From positions 43,400,001 through 43,464,000 of the forward strand of contig OX597827.1 of assembly GCA_951406725.2 (NCBI GenBank): 64,000 nucleotides of DNA, read 5' to 3'. This stretch comes from Octopus vulgaris. Its lineage: Eukaryota. Of this stretch, positions 6,144-49,265 are shown piece after piece (the first letter of the stretch is position 1; every line of letters starts with the position of its first letter). The notes beneath the pieces are model-generated. The model searched no databases, was not told the DNA's origin, and saw nothing but the letters and a program-made list of their open reading frames with translations. The position numbers and the translations under genes are program-made.

Positions 6144-6189
6144 AACATAGCGTTTCGGCCGATATACCCTCCAGCCTTCATCAGGTGTC
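6144..6189 (-). ncRNA. Minimal type I hammerhead-ribozyme-like motif in a Penelope-like terminal fragment (~6085-6207)
   Basis: Reverse complement: GACAC-CTGATGA-A-GGCTGG aggg tata TCGGCC-GAAAC-GCT-ATGTT. Core boxes and stem II are intact; the cleavage triplet looks mutated. Confidence 0.7.
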
Positions 6190-6209
6190 TTGGGGAAATT
6201 TTGAACCGT

Positions 6210-6292
6210 TGGCATATGGCGTAGTGGTTAAGAGCGCGGGCTACTACCCCCAAGATTCCGAGTTCGATTCCAAGCAGTGACCTGAACACTAA
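6210..6292 (+). mobile_element. tRNA-like SINE head or tRNA pseudogene
   Basis: TGGCGTAGTGG A-box and GAGTTCGATTCC B-box, with no complete acceptor stem; followed by (TAA)n. Confidence 0.65.
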
Positions 6293-6364
6293 TAGATATA
6301 ATAATAATAATAATAATAATAATAATAATAATAATAATAGTAATAATAATAATAATAATAATAA

Positions 6365-6845
6365 TGCAGTACCAGGCAGTGGCTCTCAAGGCTTCTGATC
6401 TTAACTGATTGGAAGTGTTATCTTGTACATTATTTTGTCTTAGTATAAAAGATGGGCTACAGCAAATATTCTGCTCAATACCTCAGATTTGCTTGTCAGT
6501 TGTTTGACCTTTACCAGTTGATCATGTCCCGTAGTGGCTAACGATATGTGCATCTCTGATCACGAGCAGAAGTAGTGGGGGAGCATCATAGCCATGTGTT
6601 GAAAGGAATTCTTAGAGTTTTGGATAATTCACCTCTGGAAACATGGGTGGTTCGTGCAACAGCCTTAAACAATCTTTATTCAGAGACCTTTTGAGCGGGA
6701 TGGGTTACTCGACCAGAAGAAAATTCTAACTGGGCCCCACCTGCAAGGTCATGCGCTGTTTATCTTAATATGCGCTCACCATGTCGCGCATAGATGGTTG
6801 TGATGCATGTGCCTGGTGTACCCTTATCAGACGGGTAGTCATGAT
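6365..6845. mobile_element. Non-coding interspersed repeat that sits in (TAA)n tracts (copy 1)
   Basis: Collinear with 16097-16625 and 52405-52592. Confidence 0.85.
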
Positions 6846-6867
6846 CCCGGGTTCATGAGGTGGGAAT

Positions 6868-7036
6868 GAGTCGATTACATAGACCCCAGTACTCAACTGG
6901 TACTTAACTTATCGAACCCGATAGGATGAAAGGTAAAGTCGACCTCGGCGGAATTTGAACTCAGAAGGTAGCGACGGGCGAAATACCACTATGTAATTTG
7001 CCTGGCGTGCTAATGATTCTGCCATCTCACCACCTT
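6868..7036 (-). mobile_element. SINE B
   Basis: GGATGAAAGGTAAAGTCGACCTCGGCGGAATTTGAACTCAG. Confidence 0.85.
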
Positions 7037-44463: not shown

Positions 44464-44583
44464 ATGGAAGCACTCCGTCGGTTACGACGACGAGGGTTCC
44501 GGTTGATCCGATGAACGGAACAGCCTGCTCGTGAAATTAACGCGAGTCCGCTGCCCTAACCACTGGGCCATTGCGCCTCCACA
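44464..44583 (-). mobile_element. SINE C with a large internal deletion (head fused to tail)
   Basis: Both ends of 21793-22165 are joined at AATTAACG|CGAGTCC. Confidence 0.8.
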
Positions 44584-47469
44584 CTACTACTATATATATA
44601 TATATATATACATATATATATAACGGGAAGGTTTACGAAAATAAACAAAAGACGAAGGCAGGTGGAGTACAAACAAACAAATGTATTAGTATAGCGCTCA
44701 ATGTGTGTGTGTGTGTGTGTGTGTGTGTGTATCGTGGCACTCCGTCGGTTACGGAGAAGATTAAACATAAAAGATAATGTTCAATATAAAATATGGACCA
44801 AACCTAGAATTTGAGAAAATGAAATAGAAGGCGAGCTGTCGGGTAGACGGATTTATTAAGGTAAAGATCGACAAGGAATTAAAATGAAGTCACGAGAAAT
44901 AAACTACAAGACTTACGCAGAAGTTGGCGGGCGCTTTTTGTCTTCTCCCATCCTTATCATCCTTGTATCATTATCATTCATCTCAAAAATGTCCGTGTCC
45001 AGCCCGCAAGCTCCCTTACTCTATGTACTGCCTTTATGGCAAATTTAATAAAATAAAGTAGAAGTTTAGTATGGGGTCGATATAATCCCCTTGAGCGAAA
45101 ATTTGAAACCAATGCTGGTCATGAGATTAAGTTTGCTTTGTATCCATGTCGTTTCGGGTTCAATCCCTTTTGCATAGCACCTTGGGTGTCTTCTACAAGC
45201 ACACACACATGTACACATTTGTACACACATTTTTTACTTATATCTACATATAACTATGCACATGTATATATTTATACATATACGCACATATACATATTAT
45301 ATAGACATGAATATACATATAATTATATATAGATATGTATACCTATATGTGTGTGTGTAAAAATGTGTCGAAACGGTCGTAGTGATTTTAAAATAAAGAA
45401 TGTAGTGCATTCCACTTTATACTACTTTATACTACACTTTATACTATTGGTTGTCCAATAAGTGTGGACGAACTATGCATAGCATTCTAGAAATTTTTTA
45501 CCCGGATCCTATTTAAACCAAACGCTTGTGAATGTATCTGGTGAACGAAAACTGTATGGAGGTCTGTCGTACGAGCGTGAGTGTATATATGTGCGTGTAT
45601 GTGTGTACGCGCGCTTGTGTCTGTTTGTGTCTCCCTCTCAACTACCGCTTGACAATATGCGATGGTTTCTGTACACCCCCATAAATTAGCAGTCCGGCAA
45701 AAGAGACTGATAGAATAAGCACCAAACATAAAAGAATGAATTCTAAAATCGATCTGTTCTACTGGATCCCTTCAAAGCAGCTCCTCACTAACTGAAAGAA
45801 GGAGAAGATAAATGTTAATAGTTTCAAACGTTTTGATTTTTACTTAATTCTATATCCTTATTTAATACACTTGCATCAGCTCTGCATAGTTTAAACAATA
45901 AATAACGATATTTACTCCTGAAATTGAGCGCCTGTCAGTAACGCAGTGCATTAAGGAAATAAAGTCATTTCATGCATGAAAGATAAGTTTTCACGAGAAA
46001 TGCACGAGTGTTCTATTGAACCGAAAAAGCATTCCTTAAGTAAAATTCTCGTCCATTTCTAGATGCTTTTTCTGTGTGTGTAATACCGGATACATACATA
46101 CATACATACATACATACATACATACATACATACATACATACATACATACATACATACACACACATATATATACATATATATACATATATATATATATATA
46201 TACATACATATATATATATATATATATATACATACATACAAACATACATACATATATATATATATACATACGCACATATATATATCTCAATACATAGACA
46301 CATATGTGTGTGCATATACCTGTGAGTGTGTGTATGTTTCGGCGTGTGTGTATATATATATATATGTATATATATATATGTATATACATATATATGTGTA
46401 TATATATGTATATAAATATATATATATATATATATATATATATATATATATATATATATATATATATATATATATATATATATATATCTTCATTTCTGTG
46501 TTCATATAAGCAGGCTTTCTTCTATCAATTGTACATAAATGAAATATTGTGAAGACAGTAAAAGATAGGAGAAAGACAGGTATATAAAACAGAAGAGAAG
46601 GGTAGAGAGATAAGAGAGAGAGAGAGAGTGAGAGAGAGAGAGAGACTGGGAAATGTATATAGAGGGAAGGGAGATGACAATGAGGGAAAGAATGGGATTC
46701 AAAAAGTAGAGATTGAGAGAGATAAAACACATCACAAACATAATAAACAAACATAAGAAATTGAAAATAAAATAGAAATACACATCAGAAAAAAAAAAGA
46801 AAATAAAAGCAAATATAACATGAACGTATTGAAAGCAAATTCGTTGGAAAATTAATCGTAAACGAACAATGGATGCGTCTATATGTTGAATGGCAGCCAT
46901 TTATTTGTTACCTCACAAGAAGACAGAAAACAAGCATTTCGGATTTCGAGACAAGAGAGAAACATTGCATTGCTAACATCGTGAATCTCTATAAAGGAAG
47001 AATACAATACACGCACACACACACATACACACACACACAGACACATACACATACACACACATACACACGCACACATACATATATATATATACATGTGTAT
47101 ATGTATATATATTTATATCTATCAATCTATAATTTGTATATGTATGTATGCAGATATGTGTGTGTGCCTATGTGTGTGTATGTGTGTGTGTGTGTGTGTG
47201 TGTGCGTGGCGTGCGTGTGTGTGTAATGAAACCTCTTGAAACAAAACAGAACAGAAAACACAGAGAAACAGGAGGTGAAGGCAAAGAGTGGGGGGTTGAC
47301 TAGAGATAGAAGCAGAACAGTATCTTGTTTTACGGAATAAAACATTAAGATGGTACTTATATTATGTGTATACATTCATACACACATATAGACACACACA
47401 CACACACATAATGTATGCCTGTATGTATATACACCCACACGTATATGTACATAAACATACATACATTCA

Positions 47470-47730
47470 TACATGATGATGCTATCTCCGTTCGCTCAAA
47501 GAGTATCAGACAATGAGAGTTCTCCAAACTACGCCATTCTTTCCCTGTTGACATCAATCTCGGTCAAGTCTTCCCCCACAGTCGTTTACCAATTCTGCGT
47601 TGCCCTGCATCCCTCCGCCCTTCTTCATTCATCTGTCCACACGACGGCTGTCCTTGCCGGTTTCTCTAACACTAAACGCTACAAGCAATATGCGTTCGTC
47701 TGTGACGACGTTTTGCAGTTTACGTAGGCC
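47470..47730 (-). mobile_element. Decayed RTE-like 3' end
   Basis: W*TTVGEDL..GKEWRSL followed by a short (CAT)n tail. Confidence 0.45.
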
Positions 47731-47879
47731 AGCCCTTCCCATGACCTGATTTTAATTCCTTGTCGATCTTTGCCTTCATAAATCCGTTTACTCGACAGCT
47801 CGCCTTCTATTTCATTTTCTCAAATTCTAGGTTTGATTCATACTTTATATAGAACATTATCTTTTATATTTAATCTTTT

Positions 47880-48232
47880 TTTTTATTTGTTTACACGTTT
47901 CAGTCATGTGACTGCGGCCAAGCTGGGGCATCAACTTGAAGGGTTTTTAGTTGAACAAAGCAACTCCAGGACTTATATTTTATTAAGTTTGGTACTTATT
48001 CCATCGGTTTCATTTGCCGAATTGCTGGTGTATTGGGAGGCAAATGCGCCAACACCGGTTGTCAAGCAGTGGTAGGGGAACAAACATAGATATAAACACA
48101 CACACTCATAAGGCTTTGGTCACCCGGGGCTATAGTAAAAGACACCAACATAAAGTGCTGCGCAGTGGGACTGAACCCGGAACCATAAGGTTGGGATGCA
48201 AACTTCTTACCACATAGCCACTTCTGCGCCTA
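47880..48232 (-). mobile_element. SINE A, diverged
   Basis: Tail and head motifs both present. Confidence 0.8.
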
Positions 48233-49265
48233 CTGAACATTAGTATAAATTACCTAGTGACTGATGAGTGTGATATTTGTGAAAATGAAATAATTAATTT
48301 AAAATAGAAGTAAAACATCATTTATATAACATAACTTCAATATAAAGAATTACAAGCGTTCTGTTGTGTAATTGTTTATGTCAGTCGATGGTGTGTCTGC
48401 TGTTCTTTTTTCCTATTTTACATTTATGCTTACCATGTAGAATATAATTTCCATTTAGATCTTGCCAGATAACTGAAATAAGCTTTTAAACGTGTTTATC
48501 ATGCATTTATCTTCGGTTAAGTGAATATGCAGAAATATAAACACATGCCTACTTAATAAGTTACGTTATGCTGAAGCAATTAACTACGATATGGCAATCA
48601 CTTCCATCCAGACAAACCTTAAACACCGAACGTACACACCATGTAGGTATAATGGAGACTATTTTTAAATGATGGTACTTCAGTCATACATATTCGTTCA
48701 GAAATAGTTTAGGCGATATTTGTGCAAAACATCATATTCAAAAGACAAATACTAGAACGTGCGAAGAAAAAATGTTGGTATTATTATTTGAGATATGTTC
48801 AAACTCAGCCGAGATCAACTTTGCATTTCATCCTTTTGGGGTCAATAAATTAAGTACCAGAGTAACAATGGAGTCGATGTAATCGACTTGTCCACTCCCC
48901 CAATACTTCAGGCCTTGTGCCTATAGCAGAAAGGATTATTATCTGAGATATGTAGCGCGCACGCATAAACTTTCTCTCTCTCTCTCTCTCTCTCTCTCTC
49001 ACGCAGACACGCGCGCACATACATATATATGTTTGTGTATATGTGCTTTACCTTAGGCATAGCGATACTAAAAGCAGGTTGTAAGAATTAGATATACATA
49101 TGATTTAGAGTAAAACGTCAAGAGAATTCCGAGCGGATCTCGCACAATCACTCAATTCTGAGTGCACTGCTTATAATAGCAGAAACAACTGTAAGCCGAA
49201 GAGGGGGATAACGTAATTCCTGTTCTTTTGACATCCTCAATTGTTATATATATACACACACACAA

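Follow-up and report, generated by a model that had tools for sequence, protein, structure and literature searches.

Dispersed hammerhead motifs in an Octopus vulgaris genomic window as probable 3' ends of Penelope-like elements, one family likely with a captured polymerase III promoter

We analysed a 64,000-nt stretch of the Octopus vulgaris genome (GenBank assembly GCA_951406725.2, contig OX597827.1, positions 43,400,001 to 43,464,000 of the forward strand; hereafter the window, with coordinates counted from its first nucleotide), an AT-rich, microsatellite-packed part of a 2.8-Gb assembly in which a first-pass annotation had noticed minimal hammerhead-ribozyme motifs and ascribed them to several unrelated families of non-autonomous retroelements. 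The described letters are present at every listed site, and the sites fall into seven repeat families, here called A to G. Exact pattern matches genome-wide number 7,075 for family A, 4,236 for B, 317 for C, 260 for D, 44 for G and 14 for F (lower bounds that are not comparable between patterns), with no match for the reversed control pattern of any of the six, while family E is a local triplication with one weak outside relative (72% identical). The plurality of families thus stands, with the corrections that the sites at 9969 and 19115 belong to the same family (A) and that an inverted pair from a single family accounts for the site at 19703 (G) and another for the sites at 27145/27338 (C).

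Clade names used here rest on motifs rather than on a tree with reference elements. Family B is represented by a 5'-truncated pseudo-long terminal repeat (pseudo-LTR) of Penelope/Poseidon type at 6078..6208 (-), assigned by profile matches and by its parent element. This copy holds a ribozyme at 6144-6189 and a 30-40-nt tail; the ribozyme core and helix II are intact, but U16.1 has become C, because of which it is predicted to be inactive. Inverted relative to this copy is a family B tRNA-like head with A-box and B-box-like motifs at 6211..6288 (+), followed by (AAT)n at 6298-6365. The first family A copy, a 5'-truncated 3' end of Neptune type at 9334..10108 (+), is flanked by (TA)n tracts and carries a ribozyme at 9969-10006 which, like its subfamily, has U at core position 6 and a GUU triplet. 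A copy of a second A subfamily at 19102..19212 (+) has a decayed ribozyme (A15.1 to G, helix I damaged), and the extreme 3' end of A recurs without a ribozyme at 44621..44700 (-). Family G forms a head-to-head inverted pair on both strands at 19681..19822, its plus copy near the family majority with a weak 3-bp helix II and a long palindromic loop III, its minus copy bearing the tail and a helix II deletion; a DNA-transposon hairpin was considered at 19703 and rejected, since the family has a fixed 3' end and a tail. A further G copy lies at 42650..42733 (-). The near-intact ribozyme end of family C at 27089..27208 (-), the 3' end of a Hydra-clade-like element, has an inverted partner with a decayed core at 27340..27379 (+).

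The window copy of family F is split by inserted repeats with a 7-nt duplication. The 5' half, 28372..28427 (+), contains the true CUGANGA core (28379) and the beginning of a long helix II domain; the 3' half, 28978..29067 (+), contains the GAAA, loop III and the 3' strand of helix I, and an insertion of ~550 nt parts the two. In the family at large, CUGANGA stands ~85 nt before GAAA. Of the site annotated at 28998, therefore, the GAAA and loop III are real and the proposed core is not. Family D has a decayed ribozyme with a long helix II and an 8-nt palindromic loop III at 32540..32663 (-) and a second decayed copy, its core lost, at 49137..49234 (+). Family E occupies 37519..37998 (-) as three tandem 156-nt units, 84-86% alike, in each of which the ribozyme is decayed, with C3 changed to U without a matching change at position 8. 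The copies at 42650-42733 (-) and 44621-44700 (-, no ribozyme) had been missed, as had a lone hammerhead-like motif at 22883 (22875-22930, +), which has an intact core, a 3-bp helix II, a 4-5-bp helix III and a GUA triplet, and for which no relative was found among the loci compared.

Motif counts in the window exceed those of 30 local dinucleotide shuffles, a comparison that the first-pass annotation had itself proposed: a strict hammerhead descriptor gave 4 matches versus a mean of 0.17 (maximum 1). In a separate comparison with shuffles, a descriptor with a self-complementary loop III gave 2 versus 0.05. A relaxed descriptor gave 14 versus a mean of 5.7 (maximum 12) in the 30 local shuffles, so that the relaxed window matches are partly chance; two of them, at 44508 (within a very common unrelated repeat) and 48261, were set aside as chance or undecided. 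The claim of a high density was not borne out. A family-independent intact descriptor that requires a self-complementary loop III found 18, 23 or 15 motifs, depending on the parameter set, in 56 unselected 10-kb stretches (560 kb), versus 0-3 in shuffles (three each). This corresponds to 1.7-2.6 intact motifs per 64 kb in unselected DNA versus 1-2 in the window, which is thus typical for the genome, and we rejected the idea of a motif hotspot. Family-profile counts (12 in the window, 27 in the 560 kb) are biased toward the window families and were not used. Scaled from the 560 kb, or 0.02% of the genome, the genome-wide load is roughly 70,000-110,000 intact motifs. Only the window motifs at 9974 and 27187 passed the intact descriptor, in agreement with the earlier impression that most copies are decayed. 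Among 73 candidates scored genome-wide, the Rfam hammerhead model RF00163 recognized 6 sites, none of them in the window, and an Rfam scan of the window gave no hammerhead among 150 listed of 504 matches, those 150 being microsatellite-driven microRNA matches or chance. The best Rfam match (45.5 bits), at L031 1500-1547 (-), looks like a canonical type I hammerhead and has a complete helix III.

The majority sequences of families B, C, D, F and G keep the hammerhead core (CUGANGA...GAAA...UH); in family A, position 6 is U. Although the families differ in the sequences of helices I and II, both helices can form in the majority sequence of each of A, B, C, D, F and G, a pattern that reads as covariation between families, whereas within families the copies simply decay. 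Loop III is a 4-9-nt self-complementary palindrome in all families, with G-U pairs in family C, and the helix II domain is long in D and F. The annotation of these motifs as Penelope-type minimal hammerheads of several families with a palindromic loop III is supported. Free-energy dimer co-folding did not single out the loop III dimer. Helix II domains of 55-85 nt and an 8-nt palindromic loop III also mark additional ribozyme families at L048, L052, L088 and L327, and a fixed U4C core variant marks families at L123 2531, L126 4261-4293, L053 9262, L316 8532 and L330 8721.

For families A, B and C the ribozyme end is joined to a coding region. In family A, locus L139 has the order ribozyme, 1,032-codon open frame, ribozyme; the frame matches RVT_1 with E 1.2e-7 and GIY-YIG with E 0.006, the latter below the cut-off, and the 3' end of this full element aligns with the window copy at 9334-10108 at 95% identity over 808 columns. 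Same-strand open-reading-frame (ORF) remnants lie upstream, within 1.5 kb, in 6/30 family A loci, and (TA)n ends 28/30; by its cysteine linker, judged on the motifs given in PMC8557442, the family appears to be of Neptune type. In family C, one of 30 loci (L204/L376) has a decayed Hydra-like ORF remnant that stops ~630 nt upstream of the ribozyme. Collinearity between L204/L376 and a second locus, L377, extends over the ORF end, untranslated region and ribozyme. An inverted neighbour was found in 8/30 loci each for families C and D. Families D, F and G have ragged 5' ends and (TA)n 3' flanks (17/30, 11/14 and 21/30 loci, respectively). GIY-YIG frames are plentiful in the genome (148/150 scored), 781-codon frames combining reverse transcriptase (RT) and GIY-YIG have a U3-A8 ribozyme downstream, and the other ORF families checked at the 3' end mostly carry their own ribozyme, some with a U3-A8 core. 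The RT plus GIY-YIG linkage that the first-pass annotation had suggested looking for thus exists for A, B and C, and its picture of ORF-less, non-autonomous elements fails for these three families, whose longer copies have such an ORF upstream of the ribozyme, and is partly right for the short form of B. It was correct that protein-based annotation would miss them: no Penelope ORF remnant lies within the window. The window copies of A, B and C are 5'-truncated ends of ORF-bearing elements.

Two other coding families came to light. Loci L107-L113 (for example, L110 2268-5971, +) hold a Neptune-type family that seems young and has, in many places, intact frames of 781 codons; it also has an overlapping upstream frame of up to 479 codons and a U3-A8 ribozyme in the 3' repeat. 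L263 1-2600 (+) belongs to a Hydra-clade-like family without CCHH, with at least 150 matches and its own U3-A8 ribozyme; the accessible text of PMC8557442 does not mention the Hydra clade in this animal group.

Family B has an unusual layout. Its parent at L338, full-length and decayed, consists of a B tail, an RT/endonuclease frame and then, 27 nt past the stop codon, the series head, (AAT)n, ribozyme and tail. The frame lacks the cysteine linker, is of Penelope/Poseidon type and matches RVT_1 with E 5.8e-8; its endonuclease motif was recognized by alignment only, Pfam being silent. L400 is a second, independent parent copy, 5'-truncated and with a textbook inverted neighbour, and the parent has at least 153 RT matches. 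The short unit, defined in the first 30 loci, is ~290 nt long and comprises the tRNA-like head, (AAT)n, ribozyme and tail; this form, with the head as its start, accounts for the majority of B copies. A sense head lies upstream of the ribozyme in 42/70 loci and an inverted piece adjoins 46/70 copies; once two loci repeating another pair are dropped, the tail stands at exactly one end in 35/44 inverted pairs (49% expected, P 2.7e-5), a hallmark of endonuclease-bearing (EN+) Penelope-like elements according to PMC8557442. The (TA)n flank bias is absent (5/30 loci).

The 5' ends of the 70 anchored B copies fall in the middle part (14), in (AAT)n (12), inside the head (14) or at the head start (23); of the others, 6 reach 456-760 nt into the ORF (two look duplicated) and 1 has an internal deletion. 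A complete sense head is present in 29 copies, of which 23 start within 3 nt of the head start and 6 extend at least 456 nt further. Genome-wide, an exact 22-mer from the head has 3,735 matches, compared with 757 for one in the body ending 9 nt upstream and 741 for one ~170 nt further, so that copy number rises ~fivefold exactly at the head, a step that local exact-match rates (15/58, 7/16 and 4/13) leave unexplained. A separate short template beginning at the head is the best account of this step. The short form has the defined 5' end, the lack of coding capacity and the 3' end common to an autonomous partner that characterize tRNA-derived short interspersed elements (SINEs). The A and B boxes are retained in the B majority sequence and fit the A/B-box consensus, with box A starting at position 8; similarity to the heads of another repeat is weak (14-21 bits). 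Short and ORF-linked copies are 6.5% versus 8.0% divergent, and a separate SINE lineage with its own master copies is not supported by the alignments.

Three other views of B were abandoned. A free SINE without a parent, suggested by 0/30 loci with an ORF, was overturned by the next 40 loci; a one-off join of SINE and Penelope was rejected because the join recurs in thousands of copies; and a variant tail taken for a sister family had one match, itself. In the first 5 Mb of contig C1, B is much denser (30 exact matches in 4.6 Mb versus ~1.5 per Mb overall) and ORF sequence is kept at 0/30 copies, and at L177, L031 and window 6366-6400 other (AAT)n-ended repeats are joined to or inserted in the B (AAT)n tract.

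We interpret the motifs as hammerhead-bearing 3' ends of Penelope-like elements, joined to ORFs in A-C and likely so derived in D, E, F and G, with family B likely to have captured, within its terminal repeat, a tRNA-derived polymerase III promoter that makes a short SINE-like RNA, and give this reading as a whole a probability of about 0.75. It draws together the ORFs of A, B and C, the fixed 3' and ragged 5' ends, and the inverted pairs tailed at one end. Such elements are inserted by reverse transcription from the 3' end and leave truncated and inverted copies (PMC4209133, PMC8557442); ORF-less stubs would result if target-primed reverse transcription begins at the 3' end and stops early, and the window copies would be dead ones. 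Minimal ribozymes of such elements cleave weakly and only as dimers (PMC4209133), and by analogy with this class, the ribozymes here, which have no stable helix III, would be active only when the self-complementary loop joins them into dimers. Family B may have arisen by insertion, behind the stop codon, of a short repeat that had a tRNA-like head and ended in (AAT)n, much as proposed for the birth of TRIMp3 elements (PMC10886601); short RNAs made from its promoter would then retain the 3' signals meant for the parent's RT and would be inserted by the parent's proteins. Since inserted copies extend ~95 nt beyond the cleavage site, their template was uncleaved at that site; the cores of the commonest families are weak, and we speculate that the ribozyme fold may serve recognition as much as cleavage.

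Several observations weigh against this interpretation. No ORF was found at any locus of D (0/47), F (0/14), G (0/30) or E (0/4, by tblastn), in a search whose protein query set may lack their clades and with families that are old. In the two commonest families, the majority ribozyme shows features that should reduce cleavage (the A6 change and the GUU triplet), and an A6C hammerhead variant has low activity (PMC3088659). The B head is not called a tRNA by ARAGORN or Rfam, no firm diagnostic site separates the short (n = 23) from the ORF-linked (n = 9) B copies, which have a common majority sequence, and a 12-nt palindrome spanning the B head start could stall reverse transcription or fold it back.

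The last two points invite the alternative that short B copies are plain 5' truncations piled up at the head, where the palindrome or a tRNA-like fold stalls the RT or triggers fold-back, the head being a dead SINE relic. Besides the palindrome and the lack of diagnostic sites between short and long copies, this explanation can claim that 17/23 head-start copies abut an inverted B piece, but the points at which inverted partners join mostly vary, while the sense copy starts at the head in every case, only ~4/17 junctions are symmetric fold-backs by eye, three of the 23 head-start copies abut unrelated DNA and three a sense copy, and both boxes are retained in the majority sequence; we consider it rather unlikely. 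It seems less probable still that the short RNA lacks transcription of its own and is cut by RNase P from a long polymerase II transcript at the tRNA-like head: short and long copies are one lineage, and they begin at tRNA position 1 if box A is counted from position 8, but the single B head copy that was folded formed no cloverleaf and tRNA models fail on it.

For the families as a whole, the view of the first-pass annotation that they are retrozymes or other non-autonomous elements without ORFs gains from D, F and G, which show no ORF link, and from E, whose three tandem 156-nt units each with a ribozyme follow the retrozyme layout (bioRxiv 2026.07.22.740005). We judge it unlikely given the ORFs of A, B and C, the ragged 5' ends, (TA)n 3' flanks and inverted pairs (8/30 in D) of D, F and G, and the finding of an E array at this locus only; a retrozyme has a complete hammerhead in each unit, and all three E units have a broken core or helices. 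Chance matching within AT-rich repeat DNA, as the source of the motifs, has negligible probability: the relaxed descriptor does yield 5.7 chance matches per window, but strict counts above every shuffle and families of up to thousands of copies with pairing helices refute it for the listed sites.

Returning to the preferred reading, of captured promoter and SINE-like RNA, polymerase III transcription of the short B form has an indirect sign in the scarcity of runs of four T (T4) and is slightly favoured over its absence. A bolder proposal is doubtful: that a captured tRNA promoter in the upstream repeat drives polymerase III along the whole length of the B parent, a protein-coding Penelope-like element that would be purged of T4 runs and would breed its own SINE from that repeat. 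The 2,607 nt of L338 contain no T4 run (5.7 expected, 0/300 base shuffles; 3.4 expected and P 0.02 with dinucleotide shuffling; P 0.11 when the coding part is shuffled synonymously), the ratio of T3 to T4+ runs is 24:0 here and 149:81 (P 1e-4) in five other families, whose frames have 2-15 T4 runs, Phe codons are TTT:TTC 3:13 (P 0.05-0.11), and 11 overlapping fragments, which are not independent, have 2 T4 runs in 6,347 nt. Against it, L400 has three T4 runs in 1,965 nt, of which two look like private decay, and no T5, and translation of an uncapped RNA would need explaining.

Most of these findings agree with known biology; the load, which appears large, escapes protein-based and Rfam annotation. 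If the reading of B is true, it would be a case of a SINE-like element arising inside its own partner, and a polymerase III-type parasite of a Penelope-like element whose parent is known. The unit would also provide a 300-nt substrate for asking whether the ribozyme fold serves to cleave or to be recognized by the element's RT, which PMC8557442 leaves open. The open frames of the window at 7738-8043, 13438-14265, 12636-13082 and 15433-15885 resemble, by eye, mariner transposase and long interspersed element remnants.

Ribozyme-bearing ends of Penelope-like elements are known, as are, separately, units of promoter and hammerhead (PMC6765202) and polymerase III promoters in LTRs (PMC10886601). 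Our literature search found no paper describing a coding Penelope-like element whose pseudo-LTR starts with a tRNA-like head; Repbase, Dfam and supplements, which lay outside it, may cover these families or the core variants. With the minimal type I hammerheads described in PMC4209133 the present families share the extra nucleotide after A9, the palindromic 15-16 region and the lack of helix III, together with the presence of many families in a genome, copies that are mostly single and truncated, inverted pairs spaced 100-700 bp apart and the U3-A8 variant. They differ in the extrapolated load (~70,000-110,000 here versus 2,000-9,000 there, with another descriptor), in the very long helix II of D and F and in the tRNA-like head, which is not described in the accessible part of that source. 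With the EN+ clades Neptune, Penelope/Poseidon and Hydra (PMC8557442) they share the C-terminal endonuclease, the inverted 5'-truncated neighbour and the 30-40-bp tail at one end; A matches by its cysteine linker and (TA)n bias and B by having neither, although the terminal repeat of B differs in starting with a tRNA-like head and (AAT)n.

Close counterparts of the short B unit are the schistosome Sm-alpha/Sj-alpha SINE-like repeats, likewise short mobile units in which a polymerase III-type promoter precedes a hammerhead; those have canonical ribozymes in tandems and, in the text available to us, no named parent (PMC6765202), whereas B has a minimal ribozyme within the terminal repeat of an ORF-bearing parent. 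The animal non-LTR retrozymes (PMC7229834; bioRxiv 2026.07.22.740005) resemble family E in layout and share a derivation from pseudo-LTRs, but E is decayed and its array was found at one place only, and the other families are dispersed. The TRIMp3 elements Cassandra, Helenus and Ajax resemble B in having a small-RNA-derived polymerase III promoter within the terminal repeat, proposed to have come by SINE insertion, but they are non-autonomous LTR elements (PMC10886601), whereas B is a Penelope-like element that retains its ORF.

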